From contig CAVUOF010000017.1 of NCBI GenBank assembly GCA_963743045.1, positions 82,595-146,594 on the forward strand: a DNA stretch of 64,000 nucleotides. Direction: 5' to 3'. The notes under the pieces are model-generated. The model searched no databases, was not told the origin of the DNA, and saw nothing but the letters and a program-made list of their open reading frames with translations. The translations under genes and the position numbers were made by a program. Of the stretch, positions 20,693-48,980 are shown in pieces. Within the stretch, counting starts at the first letter, position 1. Each line of letters opens with the position of its first letter. This DNA comes from an uncultured Acidobacteriota bacterium (GTDB lineage: Bacteria > Acidobacteriota > Blastocatellia > RBC074).

Positions 20693-22216
20693 ATGAGAGT
20701 CGCTCAGACATTGACACGAGCCGGTCCAAAAGCAGAAATTGCCCTCATGCATGCAGAGAATCCACTCCTTGCCCGCCTTCCGGCACACGAGAGCCGGCTG
20801 GACGCTGCTTTCCGGCTCAGCGTATTGGTACCTGTTTATAACGAGCGCCATGTGGTGGAGGCGAGTCTTAGACGCGTTCTCTCTCTGCAGAGCGAACTGA
20901 TCAGCGAACTCGAGTTGATCGTCGTGGACGATCGCAGTTCTGATGGCTCGTGGGAGATACTCCAGCAGCTTTCTTCACTGGACGATCGCATCAACCTGGT
21001 CCGCCATGACAAGAACCGTGGAAAGGGTGCGGCCATCAGAACGGCAGTTGAGCACGCCACCGGCGATATCTGCATTGTTCACGACGCGGACCTGGAGTAC
21101 TGCCCGGACGACATCCCTTCGCTTCTGGTTCCCTTCGCAAGAGAGGGTGCGGATGCCGTTCTTGGTTCGCGTTACCTCTCCGCTCCATATCGACGGGTCC
21201 TCATGCACCGTCACACGACGATCAATCGCATGCTGACTGCGGCGGGCAGTTGGCTCACGGACCTCAGTCTTACGGATCTCGAAACCTGTTACAAAGCGAT
21301 CAATGCGACGCTTCTGAAGTCTATTCCGCTTCGCAGTGATGACTTCCGATTCGAGGTCGAGATCATCTTCAAGCTCGCCAAGCGGCGGGCGCGAATATTC
21401 GAAGTGCCGATCCGCTATCTGCCGCGGACGCAGGAAGAAGGAAAGAAGATCAGGCCGCGGGACGGCATCCTTGCGCTTCTGGCAATGCTTCGTTTCTGGG
21501 TGATTGACGACCTGTATCACAAGGATGCTTATGGTTCGCACATTCTTGCGGAGCTCGAGCGAGCGCGTCAATTCAATCTCTGGATGGGCCACACGCTTCG
21601 ACCGTTCCTCGGTAATCGAGTTCTGGAACTGGGCGCAGGAATTGGAACGCTGACAAGTCAGTTCATCCCGCGCGAGCTCTACGTCGCGTCCGACATCAAC
21701 CCACACTACCTCCAATACCTGCATTCCTACTCATTTGGAAAACCGTACCTCAGGATCAAGAAGATCGACGCCAGCTGCGCAGAGGACTTTGAAGGGTTGG
21801 AGGAGCAGTTTGACACCGGCCTGATGATCAACGTGCTGGAACACGTTCCTGATGAACAACAGGCCCTCCGCCTTCTGAGGTCAACCTTGCAACCAGGCGG
21901 CAGGGCCATCATCCTCGTCCCTCAACATCCCGGCATTTACGGAACTCTCGACCGGGCCCTCGATCACCGTGAGCGGTACACCTCGGCACAGCTCGAAGAG
22001 TCGTTGAGAAGAGCCGGGTTCCGAGTTGAGAAGGTTCTTGATTTCAATCGTTTTTCAGTGCCTGGCTGGTGGCTGAACGGCAAGGTGCTCAAGCGGAACA
22101 CATTCTCGCGAGTTCAGATCAAGACTGTCAATACATTGATTCCTCTTCTCAAGAGGATAGATCATATATGGCCGTGGTCCGGTTTGAGCCTGATCGGGGT
22201 CGGCGTCAGAGACTGA
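20693..22216 (+). CDS. Bifunctional family-2 glycosyltransferase / class I SAM-dependent methyltransferase
   Basis: The N-half is GT2 (LSVLVPVYNERHVVE..LIVVDDRSSDGS..NRGKGAAI..VHDADLEY). The C-half is a methyltransferase (VLELGAGIGTLT..MINVLEHVPDE..LQPGGRAIILVP). An alternative start is MHAENPLL at 20747. Confidence 0.85.
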   Translation: MRVAQTLTRAGPKAEIALMHAENPLLARLPAHESRLDAAFRLSVLVPVYNERHVVEASLRRVLSLQSELISELELIVVDDRSSDGSWEILQQLSSLDDRINLVRHDKNRGKGAAIRTAVEHATGDICIVHDADLEYCPDDIPSLLVPFAREGADAVLGSRYLSAPYRRVLMHRHTTINRMLTAAGSWLTDLSLTDLETCYKAINATLLKSIPLRSDDFRFEVEIIFKLAKRRARIFEVPIRYLPRTQEEGKKIRPRDGILALLAMLRFWVIDDLYHKDAYGSHILAELERARQFNLWMGHTLRPFLGNRVLELGAGIGTLTSQFIPRELYVASDINPHYLQYLHSYSFGKPYLRIKKIDASCAEDFEGLEEQFDTGLMINVLEHVPDEQQALRLLRSTLQPGGRAIILVPQHPGIYGTLDRALDHRERYTSAQLEESLRRAGFRVEKVLDFNRFSVPGWWLNGKVLKRNTFSRVQIKTVNTLIPLLKRIDHIWPWSGLSLIGVGVRD

Positions 22217-22234
22217 ATGAAGTACCCATCTGGT

Positions 22235-22435
22235 TGCCGCGCCAAAGGCGCGACCTTGAAGAGCCCGGGCGAAGCCCTGGGTATGCGTCACTAAACCGCA
22301 CGCAGCCCCATCGGGCGGCGTTTCGCCAATATCCAACTTATCCTGGGAATGCCACCCCGTTGGGGCTGCGCCTGGCGTCGGCGGTCAACCCGGGGCTTCG
22401 CCCCGGGCTTCTTCAGGTCGCGCCTTTGGCGCGAC
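22235..22435. mobile_element. Repeat family A, full inverted doublet (REPIN/MITE-like, about 200 bp)
   Basis: The left arm ccgcgccaaaggcgcgaccttgaagagcccgggcgaagccctggg faces the right arm cccggggcttcgccccgggcttcttcaggtcgcgcctttggcgcgac. There is an internal second inverted pair, gcagccccatcggg / ccccgttggggctgc. Confidence 0.75.
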
Positions 22436-22473
22436 AAACCACATTGATTCCTCTTCTCAAATGGAAGTGCCGC

Positions 22474-22570
22474 CGCGCCAAGGGCGCGACCTTGAATAGC
22501 CCAGGGCGAAGCCCTGGGTACCGTCCCCACACCGCAAACAGCCCCATCGGGGCGACCTTTCGCCATTGAC
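22474..22570 (+). repeat. Repeat family A, left arm plus internal segment only (half element)
   Basis: ccgcgccaagggcgcgaccttgaatagcccagggcgaagccctgggta followed by ..cagccccatcggggcgacctttcgccattgac. This matches the left halves of the elements at 22235 and 43231. Confidence 0.7.
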
Positions 22571-22617
22571 GCCTGGCGGCGGTGATCACGGCTTGCCGCG
22601 GCCATTGTCGCCAGCCT

Positions 22618-24930
22618 TCAAGTGGGCTGGGCCATGGCGGGATTCCCTCGCTCAATCATGTGCTCTTCGAGTTCCAGCGGGGCCGAACCATGCGGCACCC
22701 ACGCCATCTGCCACTTCGCCTCGAACCGGCGTCGGTTCTCGTCAAAGACCGACTTGTAAATCCCCTCCTCAATGAGCTTCGAGAATGATGCCTGCCCGAA
22801 ATGATGGACGAAGACGTCTGCCGCACAGATTACGCGATAGCCCTTGCCTCGCACCCTGAGCGAATAGTCATCGTCCTCGAACATTCCGACTCCATACTGC
22901 TCATCAAGTGGACCAATCTCTTCAAAGAGATCCCTGCGCATGGCGACACAGAACATCGCAAGCATCCTGATGTCTGCAACCTGCCGCTCGTGAGAGAAAC
23001 ACTGCTGCCGGGCAAACGTCTCCATCTCGCGCCAGCTCCGGTAGGTCACGTTGATCATGGCCTCGTTACCAATCTTGTTGGTCACAGGGCCGACGAGGCC
23101 CACCTCCGGGTCCTCGAGATGCCTGACCAGCCGGTTCAACCATCCTGGCGGCACGATCGTATCGTTGTTAAGCAGAACAAGGTGCTCACCCGTAGATACG
23201 GCGATACCCTGATTGTTGGCCTTTGAGAATCCGCGGTTCTCCTGATTGATTATGATCCTGAGCCGTTCCTGCTGCTGAGCCGCAAGCCTGAGATACTCAG
23301 GCGTCCCATCCGTCGAGTTATTGTCGACCACAATCACTTCGTAATTCAGATGCTCAGTATTCCGAAAGACACTCTCCAGACAGAGCCTGGTAAGCGCGAG
23401 ATTGTTGTAGGTGACCACGATGACACTTGCCCGCGGTGTGACTTCTTTGAGCGACGCCCTGATCGATCGATACCGATCCCCCCAGCTGTTCACCTCGGCA
23501 AGCGCTATGCGTTGCTCGACCATGGTGGGATTGTTCTCTTTGACCGCCCGGTCCAACGCTGTGACAAAATCACGGCTGTCGTGCGCGACATAGATCAGGT
23601 CGTGGTAAGGCGCCAGCTCGGGCAATCCGACGGCCACTACAGGCTTGCCCGCAGACAGGTATTCATAGAGCTTGACCGGGTCCGTAGACTCGGTCACCGG
23701 ACTGATCTTGAATGGGATTGTACAGACGTCAAAATGGTAGAGATACTGCGGAATGCTCTCATATGTACGTTCGCCCAGCAGCTGGACGTTTGGAAGAGCT
23801 CTCAGCGACGAGACATCGATTTCAAAGACGCCGCCGACCAGGACAAAATTGTATTGAGGCCGTTGACGGGCTGCGCTCGCGACAAGCTCCACGTCGAACC
23901 ATTCGGCGATCGCTCCGTAATATCCGATCACCGGGTGCTTCATTCCAGCAATTATCCGGTTGGGCACACAGCGCGATTTGAAGAATTCAAAATCGGAGCC
24001 ATTCCTGGCAAGGACCATGGGTCGCTTGTACGGCTCCCACCGCTGATACAGCCGGTTGGCCGTGGTTACCAGCAGATCGCACTCGCTGACCAGCCGGCGC
24101 TCCATATCAAGGATCGGCTTCTTGATGAGTGGCATATCTGCCCAGTCGTCCATCGAGTCGTAAACCAGCTGCCATCCCCAGCGCTCTCGTGCTGCGAGCC
24201 CCACCGGCCCCCAGCTGGCAAACATTGTATATATGACCGCATTCTCGATGCCCTGGATATGACGGAGCTCGTCCAATGAATCAATTAGCGTCTCCGCCTC
24301 TTCACTCGAAATCACATCCTCGAATATCTGCGGCCGCCGGTGGAGGGCAAGCGAAACGTTGAAGACGTTCTTCTTGATAGTTCTGACCAGAACCTTCTGC
24401 GGGCCATCTGGTGACTGAAACTCCGTGCAGCTGATGTAGAAGACGCGATGCCCGGCGAGAGCAAACTGGGACATCATCTGCTGCGGCCGTTGATATCGAA
24501 AATGCCAGTCGAAAAGGGAGAAACAGATGATATCCGGCAGGCGGGCGCCGGCCTGAGTGCTCTCGCGCGCGAGAATCGCATCGCTCTCCGCACCGGGCAG
24601 GACGGGCCGAATGGTCAAAGACTCGAAGAAGTCGTCCCTATCCGCTTCGGTGACTGGATTGTCATCACAGCACCACCGAGCTTTAAGATTTCTCGGCCCT
24701 GCGCCTCGCGCAAGCGGCTTGAACATCTGCCACGCTCGCAACTGCAGACCCTCCGGGAGCACCACACGAAGCGTCTGCTTGATCAGCCGCCGGGTTGTCC
24801 AATAGAGGCGTCTTCGCTCGAGCCATCCCGTTGTATCGGATGAAACATTGACGAAGGTCGTCAGGGACCAGCAGAGAAGGCAACGCGCCTGGTATGACAC
24901 CCATGGTCTCGGACTGGAAAGGCTTGCCAT
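22618..24930 (-). CDS. Two-domain glycosyltransferase: N-terminal GT-B (GT4/TuaH-like) plus C-terminal GT2
   Basis: 770-aa intact ORF. The N-half has ..ICFSLFDWHFRYQRPQQMMSQFA..GYYGAIAEWFDVELV..DPVKLYEYLSAGKPVV. The C-half has SVIVVTYNNLALTRLCLESV..VIVVDNNSTDGT..NRGFSKANNQG..LLNNDT. Confidence 0.85.
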   Translation of the reverse strand: MASLSSPRPWVSYQARCLLCWSLTTFVNVSSDTTGWLERRRLYWTTRRLIKQTLRVVLPEGLQLRAWQMFKPLARGAGPRNLKARWCCDDNPVTEADRDDFFESLTIRPVLPGAESDAILARESTQAGARLPDIICFSLFDWHFRYQRPQQMMSQFALAGHRVFYISCTEFQSPDGPQKVLVRTIKKNVFNVSLALHRRPQIFEDVISSEEAETLIDSLDELRHIQGIENAVIYTMFASWGPVGLAARERWGWQLVYDSMDDWADMPLIKKPILDMERRLVSECDLLVTTANRLYQRWEPYKRPMVLARNGSDFEFFKSRCVPNRIIAGMKHPVIGYYGAIAEWFDVELVASAARQRPQYNFVLVGGVFEIDVSSLRALPNVQLLGERTYESIPQYLYHFDVCTIPFKISPVTESTDPVKLYEYLSAGKPVVAVGLPELAPYHDLIYVAHDSRDFVTALDRAVKENNPTMVEQRIALAEVNSWGDRYRSIRASLKEVTPRASVIVVTYNNLALTRLCLESVFRNTEHLNYEVIVVDNNSTDGTPEYLRLAAQQQERLRIIINQENRGFSKANNQGIAVSTGEHLVLLNNDTIVPPGWLNRLVRHLEDPEVGLVGPVTNKIGNEAMINVTYRSWREMETFARQQCFSHERQVADIRMLAMFCVAMRRDLFEEIGPLDEQYGVGMFEDDDYSLRVRGKGYRVICAADVFVHHFGQASFSKLIEEGIYKSVFDENRRRFEAKWQMAWVPHGSAPLELEEHMIERGNPAMAQPT

Positions 24931-25277
24931 CTTCTGCGACTACTCCTCCCGCAAGACTACTCGAACAGCTTCATGGAATATGACCATATGGCCTTCAAAC
25001 TCACCGAAACCGTTGATCGGCTAATCCGAAGCCGACTCAAAGAATCCACTCGCCAGATCAGGTCACTCTAGCTACACTGGCTGAGGTTCGCTTACAGGGA
25101 TTTACATTGGGGCGTGAGGCGGGCCCAGATGCGAACTCCAGAAACACTCCAAAAAGGATCACAAATATTGCTGATTCGGTCAAGCATTTGTTCGAGGATC
25201 GACTCAACTTCCTCTACGCGCCGCGACTAATGCCGCCGGACAGCCAGTCAGGCACCGTTGCCTGAGTCCCATAAACA

Positions 25278-27807
25278 TTGAAGCTATTGGTCTTCACACT
25301 CGAGCATTACCTCGTCGTCGGGATTATTGGACTCGTTGCCTGGCTGATGGGCCGTAGTCTTACCCAGCGCCTGACCTTTGATTCCTCCCTCGAAGGATTC
25401 TCTTTTTCGCTTAGCCTTGGATTCGGGTGCCTGGCATACATTATTCTGCTTCTTGGCCTGCTGAAGATTCTTTACCTGCCAGTCGTAGTTATCAGCATTC
25501 TGATCGCCCTGGTCATTCTCTACGTTGCCGGAAGCGGTGGTTTGCGGGCTGCTCGAGCCCAGGCTCTTGTGTTGAAAGCCGGAATTGCCGGACGGATCGG
25601 CCCGGCATTGGCGTGGGCGGGTGTGATTGCCGTTCTCTTCCTCTCTCTCCCGATATTTGTCATTCCGCTCTTTTCGCCCAGGCGATGGCTCGCAGGCTTC
25701 CAGCGCCGTCTCAAGCTTACCAATCCTGTTGGCAGCCTCGTGACTCTCGTGGCCATTCTCCTTCTGGTAGTGCTTCTTGTTCCGCTGCTCCTCCTGCCTT
25801 TGTATCCGCCTTCCTATTGGGACGACATCTGGTACCACTTGCCATATGCCCGGGCTTATATCGAGCATCACGCCCTTGTGCTAACGCCATATCTCAACTT
25901 TCCAGTCTCACCGCAGACGAATGAGATGCTCTTTGCTCTGGCTCTTCTCTTTCACGATGATCTGATTGCTCAATTGATTGAGTTGTTGCTGCTGGCCAAT
26001 CTCTTTCTGTTGACTGTTGCGGCGGGACGAAGATTCGTGTCCGGTCGTGTCGGATGGTGGGCTGGGGCGATCCTCGTCTCGAATCCGTTGATCATCTGGC
26101 TCGGCGTCTGTGCATATGTTGAGATCTGCACAGCTCTCTTTGTCTCAGCGACGATCTATGCCGCCGGGATCTGGGCGCTCCGGGAACTGGTTGGAGCAGA
26201 AGCAGAACTATAGATGGCTGGTGCTCGCGGGGGGCTTTTGCGGTCTGGCCATTGGAACCAAGCTATCCGCTCTTTTCATTCTGGCCTTCGTCGGCCTTCT
26301 ATTGTGTGTCGCCGCCTTCAAACATCGCCGTTTTGGCCCTCCGTTGATTTTTGGGATGATCGCTTTGGTTGTGGCTCTTCCCTGGCTTGCGAGGAGCTTT
26401 TACTATACAGGCAACCCTGTTTTCCCGCTCGCTCACTCGTGGTTCGGCGGCCCCTGGCTTGCAGGAGTGCTTCACAATCCATTCTGGAAGCCCGACTACG
26501 CCCAGGCCCCGTTCGACAACATGCTTGGGAGATCGGACGAGAAGAGCCTTCGATCACTGCTGATCCTGCCGTGGACGCTGACCTTTGACGATCGTTTTCG
26601 CAATGCTCCGGCCGCAATCTCTCCGCTCTATCTCCTGGCGCTGCCGCTACTGGTCGTAACGGCCATTAAGGCAACAGCAGCGAACATACAAGTAACCCAG
26701 GTAGTCAGGCTGATACTCATCTGCACACTCGCGTTCACTCTCTGCTGGTTCTTCACGATTCAGGACATTCGCTACTATACGGTTGTCATTCCCATGCTCA
26801 GCATTGCAACGGCGGCCGCGATTGATCGCCTGTTGACATGGCTTCTACGAGGGCGCTCCTGGGGTGAGCACGCCCTGGTCTGGGCGATGATCTTCGCGAT
26901 CCTGGCGGCGCCTGCCTGGTTCTATTGTCAGAACCGTTGGGAGATATATGGTCCGATCCCGGTGACGGAAAAGGAGCGCGAGGCATACCTGACTCACCGT
27001 TTGCCGCTTTATCCTGTCTACCGCCACCTCAACCAGCTGGCTGGCGACCGTTATACCGTTTACGCCCTCTTTTCGCCTTTTATGGCATACTTTGCGCGGG
27101 GGCAGTTCATCGGAAACTTCTATGGCCCTGGAAGATATTCACTCATGGTGTCGGGGAGAGAGCGGAAGGGCAGAATCGTCGACGGGCAGACGCTCTACAC
27201 GCGTCTTGGACAATTCGGTGCAGGCTACTTTCTGTTCGACTCCGGCTCTCGCGATGTGGAACTACCCGACGATCCGTTCTTTGACAGTCATTTCAAGCTG
27301 ATCTATGCGCGCGGCAATGGCTTGCTATTCTCGCTTTGCGACCACTCGATGACGACTGCAGTCGGCCCGCAACGCCTCGTCAATCCGCAGTTTGAGGAGC
27401 TCGAAAACGGCCTGCCTCTGGCCTGGTCAATGACCGGGGAACCTGCTGTTGATTCGACAGGTGAGCAGAGCCTGAGCGGCAGCGTTGCTATCAGGGCAAC
27501 GACCAGCGACTGGCTTGAGACCCGCGTTGACTCAATCACCCCAGGCAGCGTCTATCTGCTCTCGGTTCAGGCTCGAGGCGATGGAAAGGCGGAGCCGGGA
27601 GCGTTGACTGTCGAGTGGCACACAAACGACGGGGAGTTGCTGGCATCGGATACGCGCGAGTTGCTCATTGGCAATACATGGAAATCCTGTTGGATATACT
27701 CCTCCGCACCGCCGGAAGCGGTGTCCGCGATCATCAGATGTTCCGGCCGGCTTAATGGCGCAGTCTGGTTTGATAACGCCTCGTTCGCAGAAGTTGTCTA
27801 CGAATAA
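25278..27807 (+). CDS. GT-C fold (family 39 / PMT-ArnT-like) integral-membrane glycosyltransferase with a C-terminal carbohydrate-binding-module-like domain; one frame break near 26178-26184
   Basis: Many TM helices. ORF 25278..26213 (..ATIYAAGIWALR) continues as NWLEQKQNYRWLVLAGGFCGLAIGTKLSALF in ORF 26110..27807. The soluble tail (VNPQFEELENGLPLAWSMTG...GAVWFDNASFAEV) resembles CBM4/9-type jelly rolls. Confidence 0.7.
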
Positions 27808-28908
27808 TGGACAAGCGGCAGCTCGAACGTGAGAAATGGGATCGCTACTATGCCTCTGCCGATGTCACAGCAAGCGACATCGCCGTCGAACAGTTTAGCG
27901 AGGAACTTGCAGCAGTAGTGGCAGAGCTTCTTCCGGCAGGCAGTGCAGTTCTCGAAGCGGGTAGCGGTGGCGGCCACCAAAGCCTCGCCCTCGCCCGCGG
28001 CAGGAAGGTTTCGGTTGACACTGATGGATTTTGCTGCGAACGCAGTAGCTGCGGCGGAGCACTTTTTCGACCATCAGGGAGTGTCGGCAACGTTCGTCGA
28101 GGGCGATGTCTTCGCGCCGGGTGAAGCTGAATTTGACCTCGTCTTCAATGCCGGAGTCCTCGAGCATTACACACTTGGCGAACAGATCGATTTTCTCAAG
28201 GGAATGGCCAGCCGGAGCAAACGGTATGTGCTGGCAATTGTTCCCAATCGATACTGCTATTGGTACTGGATCTGGCGAATGAGGGTTGTGCTACAGGGAG
28301 ACTGGCCTTTCGGCAAGGAGGTTCCCTTGCTCGATCTCTCAGCGGCCTTCGAGGGCGCCGGGCTTCGGTTTATCGGTCAGACTTTTATGGGAGACGGATG
28401 GACTGAGGATTTCATCAACTCCGTCGGGCGGGGCGGAGCGCAGGAGGAACCAGGTGCGATAAACGATGAGCTTCGCAAGCAGATCATCCAGGTTCACCGT
28501 TCCCCTCTCATCCCAAAGTCTCAGAAGTCCTATCTGGTGGCCGCTCTCGGAAGTGTCATTCCGAATGACAATGCCCCTCCAGTCTGGACAAAGCCGCTGT
28601 TGGAACAGGGACAGGAGCTTGCAGAATTGAGTGCGGCTCTTGCAGAGGCGCTTGCATTGACGATAGGTTCCGAAGAAAGGTTGCTCTCGCTTCAGTCGAG
28701 GGTCACCGGGCTCGAATGCGAGGTGGCACGTCTGAAAAGCGAAGCGGAAGCGCAGCGATCTGTGCTCGCCGCACGAGAAGAAGCGCTCAAAACAGCGCTC
28801 TATGATCTTCAGGAGATTCACGGCTCCCGCTATTGGTCGCTCCTCACACTCTATTGGCACGCGATCGCGAGTGGACGAAAGGCTCTAAATCGCGTGCGCG
28901 GCGACTGA
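27807..28908 (+). CDS. Class I SAM-dependent methyltransferase with a C-terminal coiled coil; one frame break near 28005-28011
   Basis: The ATG overlaps the upstream stop (TAATG). VLEAGSGGGHQSLALAR (ORF 27807..28124) continues as AGRFRLTLMDFAANAV...DLVFNAGVLEHY in ORF 27943..28908. The tail ELAELSAALAEALA...RVTGLECEVARLKSEAEAQRSVLAAREEALKTALYDLQEIHGSRYWSLL is heptad-like. Confidence 0.75.
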
Positions 28909-28940
28909 ATGGCATGTCCGTTTATATCGTAGTGGCGGTC

Positions 28941-29160
28941 GGCATCCCGAAGGGATGCAAGAAGGTAGCCAGGGGCAAGCGAAGCGCAGCCCCTGGAACG
29001 CTGGTGGGCGAACCCTTGCGTCCTGAAAGGCCGCGTGATTTCTCGCGATTGACCAATCCGGTTGGGGTTGGCGTCCTCAGGACGCGGTCCTTTCCCGTAC
29101 GATTCCAGGGGCTGCGCTTCGCTTGCCCCTGGCTACCTTCCTGCATCCCTACGGGATGCC
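28941..29160. mobile_element. Repeat family B MITE-like element, copy 1 (about 220 bp, about 57-bp terminal inverted repeats)
   Basis: The left arm ggcatcccgaagggatgcaagaaggtagccaggggcaagcgaagcgcagcccctggaa faces the right arm ttccaggggctgcgcttcgcttgcccctggctaccttcctgcatccctacgggatgcc. The interior is homologous to the copy at 48701. Confidence 0.8.
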
Positions 29161-29213
29161 CGAAGGGTCGGGGACGATTTCGAGACAGCTCCGTCCTTGC
29201 CAGATAAGCGGGC

Positions 29214-32190
29214 ATGTTGCGAGATTGTGATGTACTGCGGCTGATAGTCGCGCAAAAGACCAATATGTTCGGTGTAGTAATTATTACCGGCGAGACCGAT
29301 TCTTTCGACGAGAGCCTCATTGCCGGGTATCAAAGAAGATTCGACGCCGACGTCTACATAGCCGGCACGGTTGGACGAGTGCCCTTTCCAAGCGAAACGG
29401 TAGATGACTCGGAAACAGGCAGAGCCGAACTTGCGGACCATCTGCGCGGTTGTGACCTGGTTCTTTGTCTCCGGGCACCGCTATGGGTGACGAATATCGT
29501 CAAAGAGACCGGCAAACCGGCCATCGACATCTCAAGTGAACGCGGCGCACGAACTTCGGCGCTCGTAGACGCAAGGCGCCGAGACGATGACGAGACCTCC
29601 CTCTTGACAGCCCGCCTTGAAGACCGAGAGCAGAAGCTCGCGCACGCCAGTGCCCGCATCGACTCCCAGGAAGAGATTGCGAGGTCACTCAGGAATGAGC
29701 TGCATCAGCTGGCCGCCCTCAGGCAGCACCTTGCCGAGGCGCAAGCCGAGGCGCGAGTCTACCGCGAGCAGATGGAGTTGATCACGAGCAGCAATGCCTG
29801 GCGCATCGTTCGAAAACTCTGGCGTATCAGCGGCCGGATCAGGAATCGGCGGGGGACAGATCGCCTCCCTGCTCAAAGCGCGCCTGAAACCCAGGCAAAA
29901 GGCGCGCCTGCCACCGATCTGAAGGTCGAAAATCGACTGCCGGCGCATGACGAAAAGGCCCACTCGCCACTGCCCACTGATGTCAGCGCTCGCGTCGCAG
30001 ATTCCAGGCGCGTCCCAATCGTCGCACCTGCGTTCTTTGATCTCAATGGCAACAACATGCACTTCGGGGGAGCTGAGAGATACCTGATTGAGCTCAGCCA
30101 TCTGATTCGTGAGCTCGGTTACGAGCCCGAAGTCTATCAGCCAGCCATTGGCTCGTGGGTTCGTTACTACTCAGGCCTGCGGGTCAGGGGAATCGACAGT
30201 GGAGGTGATCTTCAGAAGCTGAACGCAAAGTTCCACAGCCTGGTGCCTGAAGGTGCACTTACTATTTACCTGGCTTTCTTTCTCGCAACACCAAGGTTTC
30301 ACGCTCGTTCCATAGGTATCAGCCACGGCATCTACTGGGACAACGACCTCTCGCAGAAGTCTGGAGAGCTGAATCGTCAATATCAGAAAGACGTTCTCAG
30401 TGCGATGGTCAATGTCGGACGCATGGTTCAGTCGACTCGGCGACGATGAACTGGGTTCGAGGTGTGCGGGTACCGCTGGCGAAAAAGTTTGAGTACATAC
30501 CCAACTTCGTTGATCTCGAACAGTTTCATCCCGCGCCAGTATCTCGCCGTGAAGGGGATGATTCGATTGTCATACTCTTTCCGCGGCGCTTCAATGAAGC
30601 TCGTGGCTTCTGGATGCTGGTCGACCTTGTCCCGGAATTCCTCGAGAGATATCCGAACGTCAAGTTTGATTTTGTAGGAAAGGCAATTGGACGCGAGGCG
30701 GAGGCGATGCTCGACCTGATAGACCGCTATAAGGAGCGAGTCTCGTGGCGCTTCCTCCGCCTGAGAGGATGCACGAGGCCTATCAGCAAGCAGACATCGC
30801 GCTTATCCCAACAGTAGAAAGCGAGGGCACCTCCCTCTCGTGTCTTGAGGCCATGGCGTGTGGAAATGCAATTGTTGCCACAACTGTTGGAGGCCTCACC
30901 GATCTGATTCTGCCTGATTTCAACGGCCTGCTGATCGAGCCACGAATAGCGGATCTGCGTGATGCGATAACGCGCCTGCTGGAGGATGAGGAGTTGCGGC
31001 GGCGACTCGGCCGTCGCGGCCGCAAGGTGGCACAGGCCTTCAGTATAACAATCTGGCAGGAACGCTGGAAACGAGTCCTGGCGGAGTTCCTGCCCCAACA
31101 GTCTTCCCCGCTCCCGGCTACTCATCGTGGCGTGGCTGTCTTCCCTGCGATATCGTACATTACGTGGGAGGTGGTCAAGCAACGGCCTCATCATCTGGCA
31201 GTGCAGCTCGCCGCACACGGGATTGAGACCTATTGGCGCAATCCGACAGGCAAGCAAGTGAGCGGCCGGCCGGGCCTGCATATTGTCTCACCTGAAGATG
31301 ACCTATATCTCAAGTCGCCCTTTGTTCTAATCTATTGGCCATTTCACTACCTGAATCTTGGTGAGTATGATCGGCCGCGCGTTATCTTTGATGTCCTCGA
31401 CGACATCAGTATTCATGACGCTTCAGATCGCGCCGCCAACCTGCCGGTTGGCCGCCGCGCGAGAGACTACTACAAGCTCATGCTCAGCGCGCAGATCTGG
31501 TCATGACGTCATCCAACGTTCTCTTTGAGAAGGTCCGGCTGGAGCGTCCCGATGTAATGTTTATCCCAAACGGAGTGGATTTGGAGCACTTCAACCCTGA
31601 GCGCGTGGCGGTATCAGCTGAGCTCAAGGCGATAGAAGAGCCGGTGGTTGGATTTCACGGAGCCATTGCGGAATGGGTGGACTACAAGCTTCTCGAGGAG
31701 GTCCTGGATTTACGGCCTCAATATCAATTCGTCTTCGTCGGACCGGTATCGCAACCGAAGGACTTCGCACGCGTTCTGGCAAGACGAAACGCGAGGCATA
31801 TTGATACCAAGGTCTATGAACTCGTTCCTGGCTATATAGCGGGGTTCAAGGTCGGCATCGTCCCCTTCCTCATGAATGATGTCACGCGCGGGTGTCCGGC
31901 CTCTCAAGGTTCTCGAATACATGGCCATGGGGAAGCCGACAGTGGCCACACCCTTGCCCGACATCACGCACTGGCCGGGCGTTCTTTGCGCTACGACAGC
32001 GGAAATGTTTGCGGCGAAGATCGATGAGGCCCTGGAGAACGGCGCAGCACTTATGTCGGGCAGGGATGTCGCCGACTTTCTTTGCGCCTCCTCGTGGAAG
32101 GAAGTGACGAGACCGTTAATGGCAGCTCTCGACGAGATGCTCGGAAATTCGGCTAACGAGATCGCGGCAAAGACACTCCAGGTTACCTGA
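29214..32190 (+). CDS. Very large multi-domain glycosyltransferase (N-domain, coiled coil, GT4 domain, second TuaH-like GT-B domain), read through four frame breaks (about 30428, 30750, 31490, 31890); could be two genes
   Basis: ORFs 29214..30449, 30446..30817, 30745..31506, 31503..32027 and 31876..32190 join into a collinear protein. The joins are ..NVGRMV|SVDSATMNWVRG.., ..YKERVSW|ALPPERMHEAYQQADIALIPTVESEGTSLSCLEAMACGNAIV (GT4 EX7E region), ..KLMLSA|ADLVMTSS.. and ..FLMNDVTRG|VRPLKVLEYMAMGKPTV. No in-frame stop separates the GT4 part from the second domain. An in-frame GTG at 31132 could start a separate gene. Confidence 0.6.
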
Positions 32191-32246
32191 GGTAGCCAAG
32201 CGCATTTCAACCCGCTAAAGTAAAGGTTCGAAGGCTGGAATAGATA

Positions 32247-33084
32247 ATGGCAGCCAATTCCACACAGCAAAAACCGGTCTACGATTCGGCAGCACAGAGG
32301 CGTCCCTGGATCGTCGAGCTTGTCGAGCTCTACCGGTATCGCGATCTGCTCGTACAGTTGATCGCGCGGAACATCAAGACCCGCTACAAGAGATCCGTGC
32401 TCGGGGACTTCTGGACGATGCTCAACCCGCTTTTTACGATGATCGTCCTTTCGCTCGTCTTTTCTCAGGTGTTTCGCTTTCAAACAAAGTACTACGCCAC
32501 CTACGCACTGGCCGGGCTGATCTTCTGGAATTTCTTTGCCCAGACGACAAGCCATGCGAATCAGTGAGCTGCTCTGGGGCAGCACGCTGCTCAACCGGAT
32601 ATATGTACCGCGGGCAATCTTTGCGGCAACGGCGCTCGGCACAGGGCTCGTCAACTTTCTTATCGCTCTGGTGCCGCTGTTGCTGATCATGCTGGTGACG
32701 CGAACTCCGATCAGGCTGTCACTGCTCTTTCTGCCGGTGCCGGTGGTGCTGATCGCCTGTTTCGCGCTGGGAGTCAGCCTGCTGCTTGCGAGGCTCGCCA
32801 TCTACTTCGCCGACGTGCTCGATATGTATCAGATACTGTTGACGCTCTGGATGTATCTGACTCCCATAATCTATCCGAAGAACATTCTGCCGGCGCGATT
32901 TTACTGGGTGCTCAATCTGAATCCGATGTATCACTTGCTGGAGGTCTTCCGAGCGCCGATCTATGCGGGCTGGCTTGCCGGGCCCAAGACTCTTGCGGCA
33001 GCAACCCTGATAGCATTCTCGACACTCGTATTCGGCTGGTGGTTCTTCACTAGAAAGGCTGATGAACTCTCTTACCGCGTCTGA
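32247..33084 (+). CDS. wzm: ABC-2 type polysaccharide export permease (Wzm/TagG-like); one frame break within 32536-32567
   Basis: LYRYRDLLVQLIARNIKTRYKRSVLGDFWTMLNPLF.. (ORF 32247..32567) continues as ..LLNRIYVPRAIFAATALGTGLVNFLIALVPLL.. (ORF 32536..33084). Confidence 0.85.
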
Positions 33085-33847
33085 GATGCGTCCGACAGGG
33101 AGCGCGCGGGAGACGGCTCCCGTGGTAATCAAGGTCGAGCACGTCTCGGTACAATACAAGGTTCAGCGTGACCGCATCCGCTCGTTCAAGGAGTATGCGA
33201 TCAGGCGGATGCAGCGTCGCGTAAGTCAGGAAGACTTTGCTGCCCTTCGAGACGTAAGTCTCGAAATCCGCGAGAGCGAAGTCTTCGGGATTATTGGCCG
33301 CAACGGCGCGGGCAAGAGCACTCTCCTCAAGGTGGTCTCGCGCGTTATGAAACCGACGACAGGCCGTGTCTGGGTATGCGGGAAGGTAGCGCCGTTGCTG
33401 GAGATCGGAGCAGGTTTCCACCACGAGCTCACCGGTCGAGAGAATGTTTATCTCAACGGCACGCTTCTCGGCTACAGCCGCGCAGAGATGTCGGCACAGT
33501 TTGACGACATAGTTGAATTCGCCGAGCTCTGGGATTTTATCGACGCGCCGCTGCGCACATATTCGAGCGGCATGGTCAGCAGGCTGGGGTTCGCGGTGGC
33601 GACTTCTACGCAGCCCGACATACTTATCGTGGATGAAGCTCTTTCGGTTGGTGATGAACAGTTCAGAAAGAAGTGCTCAGAAAGGGTCAGGCTGTTCAGG
33701 GAGAGCGGCACCACGACACTGCTTGTAACCCACGATCCGGAGCTGGCTCACAATCTCTGCGATCGGGCCGCGCTGCTTGACCACGGCTCGCTGAGAGCAA
33801 TTGGTCGGGTCGACGATGTCATCAAAGAATACCATTCAAACGTTTGA
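33062..33847 (+). CDS. wzt: Polysaccharide export ABC transporter ATP-binding protein (Wzt/TagH-like, short form without a C-terminal carbohydrate-binding domain)
   Basis: Walker A GRNGAGKSTLLK, signature YSSGMVSRLGFA, Walker B ILIVDEALSVGD. An alternative start at 33086 lies 2 nt after the wzm stop. Confidence 0.9.
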   Translation: MNSLTASEMRPTGSARETAPVVIKVEHVSVQYKVQRDRIRSFKEYAIRRMQRRVSQEDFAALRDVSLEIRESEVFGIIGRNGAGKSTLLKVVSRVMKPTTGRVWVCGKVAPLLEIGAGFHHELTGRENVYLNGTLLGYSRAEMSAQFDDIVEFAELWDFIDAPLRTYSSGMVSRLGFAVATSTQPDILIVDEALSVGDEQFRKKCSERVRLFRESGTTTLLVTHDPELAHNLCDRAALLDHGSLRAIGRVDDVIKEYHSNV

Positions 33848-33878
33848 GCCCGCCGCCATTCCCGTGAACAAGAATCCG

Positions 33879-34991
33879 ATGAAGGTCCTCTGCGTCTTTG
33901 GAACGCGCCCTGAAGCAATCAAGATGGCTCCCGTTGTCAGGGAGCTGTGGCGCCGTTCTGCTCGGTTTTCGACGATCGTTTGCGTCACCGCGCAGCATCG
34001 CGAAATGCTCGACCAGGTTCTCTCACTGTTTCAGCTTAAACCGGATTATGACCTCAACCTCATGCGGGATAACCAGTCGCTTGCCGGCATGACTGCCGAA
34101 GCTTTGACCGGACTCGACCGGGTACTGGATGAGGTCAAGCCTGACCTGGTACTCGCTCAAGGCGACACGACCACCGCAATGGTTGCGACGCTGGCCGCGT
34201 TTTATCGCCGAATCAGGATCGGCCACGTGGAGGCGGGTCTGAGAACCTGGAACAAATTCCATCCTTTCCCGGAGGAGATCAACCGGAAGATCGCAGACGC
34301 AGTATGTGACCTGCATTTTGCACCGACTGACGGCGCCCGTGACAACCTCCTGCGTGAAGGCATCAATGGAGCGAGCATTCTCGTCACCGGGAATACGGTG
34401 ATCGACGCTCTGCTCGAGGTCTCTGCGCTTCCTTACGACTGGAACTCAGGTCCACTAGAGGGCATCCCACGCGATCGGCGCTTGATCCTCGTTACCGCAC
34501 ATCGCCGGGAGAATTTTGGAGGGCCGCTGGCAAACATCTGCGCTGCACTGAGCGAGATTGCCGAGCGGCGCCCCGACACACACATCGTGTTTCCTGTCCA
34601 TCTCAATCCAAACGTTCAAAGAATGGTTTACGAACGGCTCGAGGGTCTGTCCAACGTGAGCTTGACAGAGCCGCTGGATTATCTGCCAATGGTTCACCTC
34701 ATGAAGCAATGCTACCTGGTTCTGACAGATTCGGGTGGACTGCAGGAAGAGGCTCCGGGACTCGGGAAGCCGGTCGCTGTCATGCGCGAAGTCACTGAGC
34801 GACCGGAGGGAATTGCAGCCGGAACAGTAAAGCTGGTTGGAACCGATGCGCGGCGGATCGTGGATGCCACCCTGGAGCTTCTGGACGATCCGTCAGAGTA
34901 CGAAAAAATGTCGCAGGCGGTGAATCCCTATGGAGATGGCCAGGCGAGCCGTCGGATCGTTGATTCTCTTGAGGGACACGGGCAAGCCTGA
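33879..34991 (+). CDS. wecB: UDP-N-acetylglucosamine 2-epimerase (non-hydrolysing)
   Basis: MKVLCVFGTRPEAIKMAPVV..VCVTAQHREMLDQVL..VQGDTTT..HVEAGLRT..FPEE..TDSGGLQEEAP. Confidence 0.9.
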   Translation: MKVLCVFGTRPEAIKMAPVVRELWRRSARFSTIVCVTAQHREMLDQVLSLFQLKPDYDLNLMRDNQSLAGMTAEALTGLDRVLDEVKPDLVLAQGDTTTAMVATLAAFYRRIRIGHVEAGLRTWNKFHPFPEEINRKIADAVCDLHFAPTDGARDNLLREGINGASILVTGNTVIDALLEVSALPYDWNSGPLEGIPRDRRLILVTAHRRENFGGPLANICAALSEIAERRPDTHIVFPVHLNPNVQRMVYERLEGLSNVSLTEPLDYLPMVHLMKQCYLVLTDSGGLQEEAPGLGKPVAVMREVTERPEGIAAGTVKLVGTDARRIVDATLELLDDPSEYEKMSQAVNPYGDGQASRRIVDSLEGHGQA

Positions 34992-40110: not shown

Positions 40111-42732
40111 ATGATGCGAACAACAACAAGAGTTTTGCTTATGAACTTCTGCCTGATCGCGGCCGCGAGCGGGGTTATGGCTCAGGAGCCGCGGCAGGAC
40201 CAACCGCCTGCCGCAGACGCGCAGCGCCCCGTGTTCACTCCTCCAACGCAGGAACCGCAACCTTACGATAAGGTCATCACCAAGGAAGCCAAGTCGAAGA
40301 AAGGCATCTTCACAGTGCATCAGGTGAAGGAGAAGTATTACTACGAGATTCCCAAGAACGAATTCAACAAGGAGTTTCTCTGGGTTACGCAGATCGCCCG
40401 GACAACGCTTGGCGTAGGTTACGGCGGGCAGGCGTTGGGAAATCGCGTCGTGCGATGGGAGCGCAATGGCAATAAGATGTTTCTGCGAAACGTTAACTAC
40501 AGCGTCGTCGCGGATCCCAGGAAGCCGATCTCGCAAGCAGTGCAGGCAGCCAATAACGACTCGATCCTGATGACCTTTCCGGTGGCCGCCTGGGGCCCGG
40601 ATGAGGCGGCGGTGATCGAGGTCTCACGGCTGTTCACGACCGATGTGTTCGAGTTCAGCGCGCGGCAGCGGTTGAACGCTACAACCCTGGACTCCTCGCG
40701 ATCCTACATTGAGCGCATCTCGACTTATCAGCAGAATATCGAGGCAGAAGCTTCACAAACTTATACTCGGATGGCAACGCCAGTCGGAATCACTACCACT
40801 CCTGCGCCCCTTGCTGGAGGTATGAGTCCGGGCAGCGCGACCGTGGTTCTGCACTTTAGTATGGTGAAGCTCCCCGAGAAACCTATGATGCCGCGCGTCT
40901 TTGACGAGCGCGTCGGCTACTTTACGGCGAGCCAGATGGACTACGGTCGAGACAATGAACAAAAAGCGCCCGAGCGGCACTACATTACCCGCTGGCGGCT
41001 GGAGAAGAAGGATCCCAGCGCCGAACTCTCTGAGCCTGTCAAACCGATCGTTTATTGGATTGATTCGGCGACGCCCACCAAGTGGATCCCGTACATGAAA
41101 CGTGGAGTGGAGAAGTGGCAGAAGGCTTTCGAGGCAGCGGGCTTCAAGAACGCGATCATCGCCAAGCTGGCCCCGACGCCGCAAGAAGACCCCGACTTCA
41201 GTCCTGAGGATGCGCGTTACTCGGTGATCCGCTGGCTCCCTTCGACCATTGAGAACGCTTCGGGCCCGCACATCCATGATCCGCGCACCGGCGAGATTCT
41301 TGATTCGGACATTCAGTTCTATCACAACGTCATGAACCTCCAGCGCGCATGGTACTTCCTGCAGGCCGGACCGCTCGACTTGCGTGCGCAGAGGCTGCCC
41401 TTGCCTGACGATCTGATGGGCACCCTCCTGGAGTTTGTAGTTGCGCACGAGGTCGGGCACACGTTGGGCTTCCAGCACAACATGAAGGCAAGCTCGACTT
41501 ACCCCCAAGAGAAAGTCCGCGACCGCGAGTGGGTACATAAGATGGGCCACACGCCGTCGATCATGGATTATTCGCGCTTCAACTACGTGGCGCAGCCCGA
41601 GGACAAAATCGATGCCGGCCGATCTTGTTCCGGGCATCGGACCCTACGACGTATGGGCAACGATGTGGGGCTACAAGCCGATCTCCGGCGCGCACACTCC
41701 GGACGATGAGAAATCGACGCTTGACCAGTGGGCGCGCGAACAGGACAAGACGCCGTGGTACCGATTCTCGACCGCGGGCGCCGCGGGCAGCGATCCCGGC
41801 GAGCTGACTGAAGCGGTCGGTGACGCGCGATGCGGTGAAATCAACCACGATGGGTATCAAGAATTTGCAACGCGTGGCCAAGATGCTGTTGGCGGCGACC
41901 ACCTCGAAGGAGGGCGAATCTTATGACGACCTGGACCAGCTGTATGGCAGAATGCTCGGTCAGTGGACGCTGGAGCTGAGCCACGTAGCCGCCATCGTCG
42001 GCGGATTCAACAGCCAGCAAAAACGCGTGGGGCAGGATGGGGTGCGGTTCACGCCGGTGGCGAAGGCTCGTCAGATGGAGGCGGTGAAGTTTCTCAACGA
42101 GAATGCATTCTCAACACCGACCTGGGCGCTCGACAAAGACATCCTGCGGAGAATCGAGCCGATCGGCGCGCTAAACCGGGTGCGCAACGCGCAGAACAGT
42201 GTGTTGAATAATCTTCTCTCAAGCGCACGCTTCGCGCGGCTCGTAGAACAGCAAGCGCTTGACGGCGAAGGCGCTTATCAACCAGCCGAATTCCTCGCCG
42301 ACGTTCGCAAGGGTATCTGGAGCGAACTCGACCGCGCCGCATGGGAAGACCAACGCTTATCGCCGCAATCTCCAGCGCGCATATCTCGATTTGGCAAACA
42401 GCAAACTCAACGGCCCAACACAGGTGCTGCCCGCTGGTCTTCCATCGGCGTTTGCAGCGTTCTCCATCACAAGCGGTGACGAACGAGGGTTCTATCGCGC
42501 CGAACTTCGCGCTCTGAATACATCGGTAGCTGGGGCGCTTGCGAGGACAACCGATCGAGCCACCCGCGTGCACCTGGAAGACGTGCGTGATCAGATAGTC
42601 AAGATTCTCGATCCCAAGTTCGCCTCGAGTAACGCAGCGGCGGCGGCGGTGCGACTGTTCGGCTTTGAGCAACTGGACTCTTTTTTGAGGGACCCTGATA
42701 CGTGTTGGACGGATTACATCATTCGGCCATAG
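40111..42732 (+). CDS. Secreted zinc-dependent met-zincin protease (DUF4953/DUF5117-type); three frame breaks (about 41612, 41825, 42342)
   Basis: Signal peptide, then the HEVGHTLGFQHN...SIMDY motif. ORFs 40111..41709, 41612..41926, 41820..42479 and 42259..42732 join as ..EDKID|ADLVPGIGPYDVWA.., ..TEAVGD|DAVKSTTMGIKNL.. and ..SELDRAA|KTNAYRRNLQRAYLDL.. Confidence 0.8.
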
Positions 42733-48309: not shown

Positions 48310-48711
48310 ATGGCAAACGAGACTGCTACAGCCAAAGGAGTTCTGGAAAGGTTCAAAGACCAGAGGACAGTCCTTCTGACTACTTACAGGCGTGATGGAA
48401 GGCCGGTTGGAACTCCGGTAAACATCGCCGTCGAGGGCGATCACGCGTTCGTGAGAACGTGGGACACTTCCTGGAAGTTCAAGCGCATTCGCAACAATCC
48501 CGAAGTCGAGATTGCGCCGTCAACAGTGAGAGGCAAAGTCACAGGTCCGCCGATCAGAGCTCGTGCCCGCGTGCTCGCAGGCAATGAGGCGGCGCATGCC
48601 GCCCAGGTGATCGTACATAAGTATCCGATCCTGCACGGAGTCTTTGTACCTCTCAATCACCTGCTATTGAATCGGAAGACCGTATATTTTGAGCTTACGC
48701 GCATCCCGTAG
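48310..48711 (+). CDS. PPOX-class (pyridoxamine 5'-phosphate oxidase-like, probably F420/FMN-binding) small split-barrel protein
   Basis: ..QRTVLLTTYRRDGRPVGTPVNIAVEGDHAFVRTWDTSWKFKRIRNNPEVEIAP.. The last three sense codons and the stop (atc ccg tag) lie inside repeat B copy 2. Confidence 0.7.
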   Translation: MANETATAKGVLERFKDQRTVLLTTYRRDGRPVGTPVNIAVEGDHAFVRTWDTSWKFKRIRNNPEVEIAPSTVRGKVTGPPIRARARVLAGNEAAHAAQVIVHKYPILHGVFVPLNHLLLNRKTVYFELTRIP

Positions 48712-48920
48712 GGATGACAGAGGTTAGCCAGGGGCAAGCGAAGCGCAGCCCCTGGAACGCCAGTCAACAAATGGTTGCGTCCTGAAGGGCCGCGCGATCT
48801 CTCGCGATTGGCCATCCGATTGGCATCTGGCGTCCCTTCAGGACGCGGTTCTTTCCCGTAGGGTTCCAGGGGCTGCGCTTCGCTTGCCCCTGGCTACCTT
48901 CTCGCATCCCTACGGGATGC
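48701..48920. mobile_element. Repeat family B MITE-like element, copy 2
   Basis: The left arm gcatcccgtagggatgacagaggttagccaggggcaagcgaagcgcagcccctggaa faces the right arm ttccaggggctgcgcttcgcttgcccctggctaccttctcgcatccctacgggatgc. The interior is collinear with copy 1. Confidence 0.8.
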
Positions 48921-48980
48921 CCGGAGTGAATCGGCGACGATATTCGAGACATTTGCTTGCCGTCTGACTGAGACGCCGCA

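Follow-up and report, generated by a model that had tools for sequence, protein, structure and literature searches.

Coiled-coil rulers are the best-understood way in which bacteria set the length of glycans exported by ATP-binding cassette (ABC) transporters and, to our knowledge, every characterized case comes from the Enterobacteriaceae. An extended coiled coil is described as 'a characteristic marker' of the terminator proteins that operate in ABC transporter-dependent glycan pathways (PMC11231755), and in the O9a and O12 systems chain length is set by the length of the stalk (PMC11231755, PMC10629545). Terminators are encountered in three formats: alone on a stalk (WbdD), joined to the polymerase in a single chain (WbbB and ORF6-O7) or fully split (O4) (PMC11231755, PMC10629545). 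ORF6-O7 is composed of a methyltransferase, a coiled coil and two glycosyltransferases (PMC11231755), and termination of the chain by pyruvate is on record for an ABC-dependent pathway (PMC10629545). Here we describe a locus at positions 20693-34991 of a 64,000-nt stretch of DNA from a soil acidobacterium (hereafter the window, to which all coordinates refer unless a contig is named), in which a methyltransferase and a giant glycosyltransferase, each predicted to carry a long helical stalk, are encoded next to the wzm and wzt genes of an ABC exporter. We propose, with moderate confidence, that this locus works by a terminator-on-a-stalk mechanism, where the methyltransferase would cap a chain built by the giant enzyme.

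The gene calls rest on Pfam, NCBIfam and PDB sequence searches, and the argument turns on the following genes:

27807..28908, + strand: methyltransferase with a helical stalk (conceptual protein of 366 aa, with one extra G at 27999)
29214..32190, + strand: giant glycosyltransferase (conceptual protein of 992 aa over five frames)
32244..33084, + strand: wzm, ABC-2 permease (two frames, with a switch between 32564 and 32593)
33062..33847, + strand: wzt, short form with the nucleotide-binding domain only (261 aa; Pfam ABC_tran only)
33801..34991, + strand: wecB, non-hydrolysing UDP-N-acetylglucosamine (UDP-GlcNAc) 2-epimerase, which makes UDP-N-acetylmannosamine (UDP-ManNAc; TIGR00236 at 502 bits, cut-off 210)

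The two wzm fragments cover positions 3-69 and 86-209 of the Pfam ABC2_membrane profile, and the stop of wzt overlaps wecB. Genes for a Wzm permease and a Wzt ATPase thus accompany the glycosyltransferases, which is the mark of an ABC transporter-dependent pathway, and the presence of wecB implies ManNAc in the polymer; wecB also adjoins homologues of the giant glycosyltransferase in loci L004, L010 and L014. The locus would accordingly encode the synthesis and export of a ManNAc-containing surface glycan, either an O-antigen or another envelope polymer.

The methyltransferase comprises a methyltransferase domain (residues 1-250), a long helix (269-339) and a terminal helix (341-365) that carries the motif GSRYWSLLTLYW. 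Its structure was modelled with AlphaFold2 on P0003, an intact orthologue that is 96% identical to the window protein over 100% of its length (38-sequence alignment, mean predicted local distance difference test score, or pLDDT, of 91.4). The model predicts one unbroken helix from residue 269 to 339, that is 71 residues, or ~10 nm if straight. Members of this methyltransferase family share a ~250-aa catalytic core with a CYWYWIWR...WPFGKEVP insertion, followed by a helical spacer that has conserved ends, spans 67 to 169 residues between core and motif and finishes in S-R-x-W-R-(L/I)...(L/W)R. A Foldseek search with the model retrieved generic class I methyltransferases, headed by the sugar O-methyltransferases AtmM and RebM among the top 50 of 1,965 matches.

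The giant glycosyltransferase begins with an orphan head (residues 1-100), continues with a helix (107-192), an amphipathic helix (194-212, SSNAWRIVRKLWRISGRIRN) and a linker (213-265), and ends, according to Pfam searches with the stitched protein, in a GT4 module (~266-620) and a second, TuaH-like GT-B module (~640-990). AlphaFold2 applied to the first fragment of the protein encoded in the window (411 aa) predicts an unbroken 86-residue helix at 107-192 with pLDDT above 90, preceded by a poorly defined, Rossmann-like head at 1-100 and followed by a disordered linker at 213-265 and then by the start of the GT4 fold. The helix that comes after the stalk (SSNAWRIVRKLWRISGRI) is both amphipathic and basic, with a hydrophobic moment (muH) of 0.77 (shuffle p 0.015) and a net charge of +8. 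In the family as a whole, a constant GT4+GT-B core of ~770 aa is preceded by a modular N-terminal region that may hold a PS_pyruv_trans domain, a methyltransferase, a GT2 domain or nothing; a coiled coil of variable length then leads to an S-x-x-W-R-L...LWR-type motif, for example LDEIYGSTGWKILQKLWR, and to GT4. Heptad periodicity in both stalks was assessed by a home-made score calibrated on the per-protein maxima of 1,500 long open reading frames (ORFs) from the same genome; residues 287-330 of the methyltransferase and 127-195 of the giant glycosyltransferase fall at about the 99th percentile. The heptad-rich segments that the initial annotation had pointed out in both proteins are therefore borne out by this score and by the predicted helices, although the methyltransferase segment, which had been put at ~90 aa, corresponds to a modelled helix of ~70 residues.

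Several observations tie the two proteins to each other and to capping. The short helix that follows each stalk shares an S-x-x-W-(R/S)-(I/L) motif in the methyltransferase and in the giant glycosyltransferase, and within the genome of the window this stalk-end motif is found only in these two proteins. The stalk end of P0065, a giant homologue headed by a pyruvyltransferase, aligns with the tail of the methyltransferase at 28% identity (E 2.5e-4). In P0069, a member of the giant family of 1680 aa, residues 9-284 match the window methyltransferase at 49.7% identity (E 3.5e-82) and the rest of the protein belongs to the giant glycosyltransferase family, with 38% identity over 80% of the window enzyme. 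The gene order at the P0069 locus (L014) is wzm, wzt with a Wzt_C domain, the methyltransferase-coiled coil-GT4-GT-B fusion and wecB; this is the gene set of the window, except that the methyltransferase and the polymerase form one protein and that Wzt has a cap reader. Free-standing relatives of the methyltransferase directly follow a Wzt_C-bearing wzt in L007, L009 and L011, so that with L014 the family adjoins such a Wzt in four of the six loci examined. Together, the P0069 fusion and the Wzt_C neighbourhoods support a cap-adding methyltransferase that works with a GT4+GT-B polymerase. Adjacency of the methyltransferase and giant genes was also considered as a conserved pairing of the methyltransferase family and rejected, the methyltransferase beside the giant homologue in G030 (L004) being unrelated.

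The remaining features of the locus, listed below, supply further enzymes to the proposed pathway:

20693..22216, + strand: fusion of a GT2 enzyme of the polyprenyl-phosphate sugar synthase type with a class I methyltransferase (507 aa, intact)
22618..24930, - strand: two-module glycosyltransferase, GT-B (TuaH-like)+GT2 (770 aa, intact, with a basic N-terminus; Pfam, NCBIfam)
25278..27807, + strand: GT-C-like polytopic membrane glycosyltransferase with a soluble C-terminal domain (two frames, with a switch within 26092-26213)
28941..29160, no strand assigned: repeat resembling a miniature inverted-repeat transposable element (MITE) between the methyltransferase and giant glycosyltransferase genes (blastn vs contig L006)

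In the first of these proteins, Pfam places Glycos_transf_2 at residues 43-205 and Methyltransf_23/12/25 at 304-447; the best PDB relatives of the GT2 half are the DPMS 5mlz (1e-20), ArnC and GtrB, and no transmembrane segment was found by hydrophobicity in its 507 aa. The divergently transcribed GT-B+GT2 protein has the same pair of modules that forms the C-terminal fusion part of the giant homologue P0002. The GT-C-like protein has 14 hydrophobic segments, a weak PMT match (E 8e-4) and a LIC_10190-family match. These searches bear out the gene content given in the initial annotation, namely a GT2-methyltransferase fusion, a GT-B+GT2 fusion, a GT-C enzyme, a methyltransferase, a ~990-aa glycosyltransferase, wzm, wzt and wecB. 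The lack of Wzx and Wzy, also claimed there, holds within 20693-34991, where each ORF of at least 100 aa has another assignment. The flanks of the locus are unrelated to it: upstream lie rnc and a gene for a secreted metallopeptidase, downstream genes for an ABC1 kinase and a MacB-type permease.

In the mechanism that we favour, the chain would be built on a polyprenyl carrier at the membrane's cytoplasmic face by the GT4 and GT-B modules of the giant enzyme, with help from the divergent GT-B+GT2 protein. Membrane attachment of the giant enzyme would come from its basic amphipathic helix, which lies at the base of the 86-residue stalk, and the catalytic head of the methyltransferase would lie ~10 nm away, at the far end of its own 71-residue stalk. 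Once long enough to reach this head, the chain would be methylated at its non-reducing end and its extension would stop. Wzm and the short Wzt would then export it and, as this Wzt has no cap-reading module, export would not be gated by the cap. After export, the GT2(-methyltransferase) polyprenyl-phosphate sugar synthase and the GT-C enzyme would probably add side residues at the outer face; their gene content suggests such a post-export decoration branch. A comparable set (a PMT_2 GT-C enzyme, a methyltransferase and GtrA) is present at the end of L011. Terminal methylation, the ruler function, the oligomeric state of the stalks, periplasmic decoration and the class of the glycan are all inferred in this scheme.

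The comparison with WbdD of E. coli O9a/O8 and K. pneumoniae O3/O5 is one of architecture. The window methyltransferase likewise has an N-terminal head, a helix of ~70 residues and a short C-terminal helix, its gene lies in a wzm/wzt locus beside a multi-module polymerase, and its relatives adjoin genes for Wzt proteins bearing a carbohydrate-binding module (CBM). It differs by lacking a kinase domain, by a terminal helix that is not clearly amphipathic and by a cognate Wzt devoid of a cap-binding module; the stalk of WbdD is also much longer. The giant enzyme resembles WbbB (Raoultella terrigena/K. pneumoniae O12) and ORF6-O7 in its succession of a head, a central long helix and two C-terminal glycosyltransferase modules, and some of its homologues have a true modifying head, a methyltransferase in P0069 and a pyruvyltransferase in P0001, P0052 and P0065. 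The format of an N-terminal terminator, a coiled coil and two glycosyltransferase modules is found complete in P0069, P0001 and P0065. However, the modules of the giant enzyme are GT4 and a TuaH-like GT-B, its head in the window is an orphan of ~100 aa, the candidate terminator is a separate protein with its own stalk, and stalk and GT4 are separated by an amphipathic helix of basic character and by a disordered linker of 50 residues. The short, CBM-less Wzt recalls K. pneumoniae O2a/O1, but WbbZ, the pyruvyltransferase that adds the cap there, has no reported coiled coil and no length control, whereas the modifying domains are here mounted on long helices. Finally, as in the CsaB/SLH systems of Paenibacillus alvei and Bacillus anthracis, giant homologues have a CsaB-type PS_pyruv_trans domain and adjoin wecB, and those in L010 and L013 lie near SLH-domain proteins; the genome of the window, with no PS_pyruv_trans and two weak SLH matches, has apparently left this chemistry behind. 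The locus thus departs from the terminator design in three respects: it has two stalk proteins, the stalk of its polymerase is effectively headless and its Wzt has no reader.

A number of results weigh against the proposed capping role. Every characterized terminated system has a CBM on Wzt that admits only capped chains (PMC11231755), and no Wzt_C domain was found by Pfam on the 261-aa Wzt of the window, which therefore does not show the CBM of the terminated subtype. Aligned with a CBM-bearing Wzt of 458 aa, this Wzt covers residues 20-266 only, and among NCBIfam models it comes nearest to the short galactan Wzt/RfbE and TagH; the alignment and the ABC_tran-only Pfam result agree with the short form, without a cap-binding domain, that had first been read from the sequence. 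Two of the six contexts of the methyltransferase family (L008 and L012) have no transporter nearby. No WbdD chain was found among the PDB matches to the methyltransferase (phmmer, E up to 1) and WbdD is absent from the top 50 of its 1,965 Foldseek matches; nor was a WbbB chain found among the PDB matches to the giant glycosyltransferase (E up to 1). The WbdD/WbbB-like arrangement suggested in the initial annotation hence stands for the order of parts, as modelled by AlphaFold2, and fails for homology, as judged by PDB sequence and Foldseek searches: by analogy, the two proteins may work like WbdD and WbbB, but they are not members of those families. The terminal helix of the methyltransferase, hydrophobic and then basic, is not significantly amphipathic (muH 0.43, shuffle p 0.30), so that its anchoring in the membrane is uncertain. 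When the window sequences are left out, hidden Markov models of the stalk-end motif recognize the other family only weakly (E 7e-4, 0.057 and 0.022). Lastly, the locus yielded no initiating transferase, no ligase and no GtrA-like flippase.

These points leave room for another, if rather less probable, explanation, in which the helices would serve only as oligomerization devices, scaffolds or membrane tethers, chain length would come from the coupling of extension to export as in O2a, and the methyltransferase would act internally or on a precursor. The short Wzt without CBM fits this explanation, as CBM-less O1/O2 transporters export chains whatever their terminal group and length there depends on the stoichiometry of transporter to biosynthesis (PMC11231755). 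The generic class I fold of the methyltransferase and the second methyltransferase domain of the locus, in the GT2 fusion, also speak for it. It accounts poorly for two features of the methyltransferase family: its adjacency to CBM-bearing Wzt genes in four loci, a signature of cap-adding terminators, and a spacer that varies in length between conserved ends. Further explanations concern the head of the giant enzyme. In homologues that are 51-55% identical, a complete pyruvyltransferase precedes the stalk, whereas in the window protein only ~100 residues do so. Residues 71-109 correspond by BLASTP and hhalign to the final beta-alpha unit of this pyruvyltransferase, although the hhalign comparison of the head with the pyruvyltransferase profile of the homologues covers only 37 columns (P 1.8e-4, probability 48%), the head has RAP in place of the conserved RLH histidine motif of the template P0001, and no Pfam family, PF04230 included, matches the head. 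Neither was any PS_pyruv_trans domain found anywhere in the genome, where SLH gave only two weak matches. On the strength of its position and of the weak hhalign match, the head is possibly a degenerate pyruvyltransferase remnant, a point that escaped the initial annotation. An exhaustive HMMER search with the head (125 aa) among 1.84 billion representatives returned one real relative, a 148-aa fragment; two other matches were judged spurious. P0199, the only close relative of the head (56% identity), starts at the equivalent of Met18 (MFGVVIITG...), and the true start of the giant glycosyltransferase may accordingly be 29265 and not 29214.

If the head is such a relic, the stalks of the methyltransferase and of the giant enzyme might pair through their shared end module, the methyltransferase replacing the lost pyruvyltransferase head on a heteromeric stalk. 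We consider this improbable. The lengths of the stalks are similar (71 and 86 residues), the end motif is confined to these two proteins within a genome that has no PS_pyruv_trans, the two enzymes are fused in P0069, and a terminal helix that is hydrophobic rather than clearly amphipathic would suit a protein interface on the methyltransferase; on the other hand, the similarity of the motif across the two families is statistically weak without the window sequences, and homo-oligomeric stalks are the rule in the characterized examples. A bolder and somewhat less unlikely, though still doubtful, extension regards the GT4+GT-B enzymes as a plug-and-play family with swappable caps. The tip of a variable coiled coil would bear a capping head, be it a pyruvyltransferase, a methyltransferase or a GT2, and the reader on Wzt would match the cap, with Wzt_C for the methyl type and the SLH domain found on Wzt in L013 for the pyruvyltransferase type. 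The window would then have been caught in the course of a terminator swap: the giant head would have decayed to a stub, the genome would have lost pyruvylation and Wzt its reader, and the stand-alone methyltransferase with the same stalk-end module would cap in trans, possibly by pairing with the headless stalk of the giant enzyme.

All the above presupposes that the proteins are real. Seven 1-nt frame switches affect four genes, those of the methyltransferase, the giant glycosyltransferase, wzm and the GT-C enzyme, within ~7.8 kb (25278-33084); in the ORF listing these genes occupy two, five, two and two frames, respectively. The proteins of '990' and '367' aa are consequently conceptual read-throughs, a circumstance absent from the initial annotation, and the genes are not open as written, although their homologues support the stitching. 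Each break is of a single base, mostly in short runs of G/C or T. The junctions in the giant gene lie near 30428 (TT for TTT), 30757 (CC for CCC), 31489 (in a GCGC stretch) and 31890 (GGG for GG). Taken at face value, the switches would be real mutations in a decaying pseudogene cluster that makes no polymer, and their concentration in ~7.8 kb, while the 6 kb on either side are open, is in keeping with decay. We hold this to be very improbable in view of the rest of the assembly and of the homologues. The essential rpoB gene of the same assembly (C22:140553-144843) is split over three frames, with rpoC intact, and genome completeness is 78% despite only 33 contigs. P0001, a 1277-aa homologue that is intact and comes from a genome of the same class, is colinear with the five frames of the giant gene at 38-51% identity in tblastn, the joins being seamless and no internal stop being found over the gene, and the wzm fragments are colinear with residues 6-112 and 117-280 of the Wzm from L014; deletions are likewise absent from these fragments. 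Metagenome contig L006, 96.4% identical over 2.7 kb, has the methyltransferase as an intact 366-aa ORF (P0003), and DNA alignment of the two coding sequences shows a single indel, the extra G at 27999; the C-terminal 1,416 nt of the GT-C gene are 96% identical to L006 without any indel. Ratios of nonsynonymous to synonymous substitution (dN/dS) between the window and L006 are 0.14 for the methyltransferase and 0.20 for the GT-C C-terminus, indicating purifying selection, and the window methyltransferase keeps all 45 invariant columns of its family. Because rpoB is split, completeness is low for so few contigs, an intact orthologue exists and dN/dS is low, the frame breaks are most likely assembly errors, and the stitched proteins were taken as the real products on this sequence evidence. 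Programmed frameshifting was rejected as well, given seven sites in four genes, no common slippery motif and similar breaks in rpoB. The assembly contains many single-base indels, and wherever an ORF of this genome is fragmented, a technical cause should be presumed unless the contrary is shown. A DUF4953 met-zincin gene at 40111-42479 of the window is similarly split.

With the reading of a stalk-mounted terminator, the locus and its relatives would extend the ruler design to the Acidobacteriota and other environmental phyla, with an unrelated methyltransferase family and with GT4/TuaH-like modules; in the relatives, the same polymerase core is met with different capping heads, fused or split. 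The main point will be expected by specialists, coiled coils having already been called a marker of the terminator strategy, and methyltransferase- or pyruvyltransferase-headed polymerases of the giant family may already be catalogued in the literature. What is unusual is that the arrangement is split and headless, that its Wzt has no reader and that a modular family lies behind it. Stalk-mounted enzymes and a transporter devoid of a reader occur together naturally in the window, which makes it a place to study if export gating is needed for a ruler to shape chain length.

Further observations concern Wzt proteins and pyruvylation. The genome of the window has two other Wzt genes with Wzt_C, at C19:431005-431418 and C19:323539-323925, in open frames of 428 and 445 aa, which implies at least three ABC-dependent glycan systems in this organism, two of them of the cap-gated kind. 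On the contig of P0065, L013:16027-17256 (- strand) encodes a Wzt ATPase with a C-terminal SLH domain (Pfam SLH, 71.7 bits), adjoining wzm, the pyruvyltransferase-coiled coil-GT4-GT-B giant, a GT4-GT2 protein and several SLH-domain proteins. Pyruvylated ManNAc is the ligand of SLH domains, and this Wzt-SLH protein therefore appears to be a cytoplasmic reader of the cap, suited to a terminator that adds pyruvate. No second Wzt-SLH fusion was found among 75 SLH-region matches or in 301 Acidobacteriota genomes. In G030, a gene of the phosphoenolpyruvate (PEP) synthase/pyruvate phosphate dikinase type (L004:18041-19999) lies ~6 kb from a pyruvyltransferase-headed giant, where it may supply PEP for pyruvylation or may be there by coincidence.

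The MITE-like element fills almost all of the space between the methyltransferase and giant glycosyltransferase genes, and it has a second copy at 48701-48921. A blastn search with L006 hits the stretch 29103-29160 of the element in the window; in this 96%-identical relative the element occupies the same site (L006:2550-2734), and the insertion is thus older than the split between the two.

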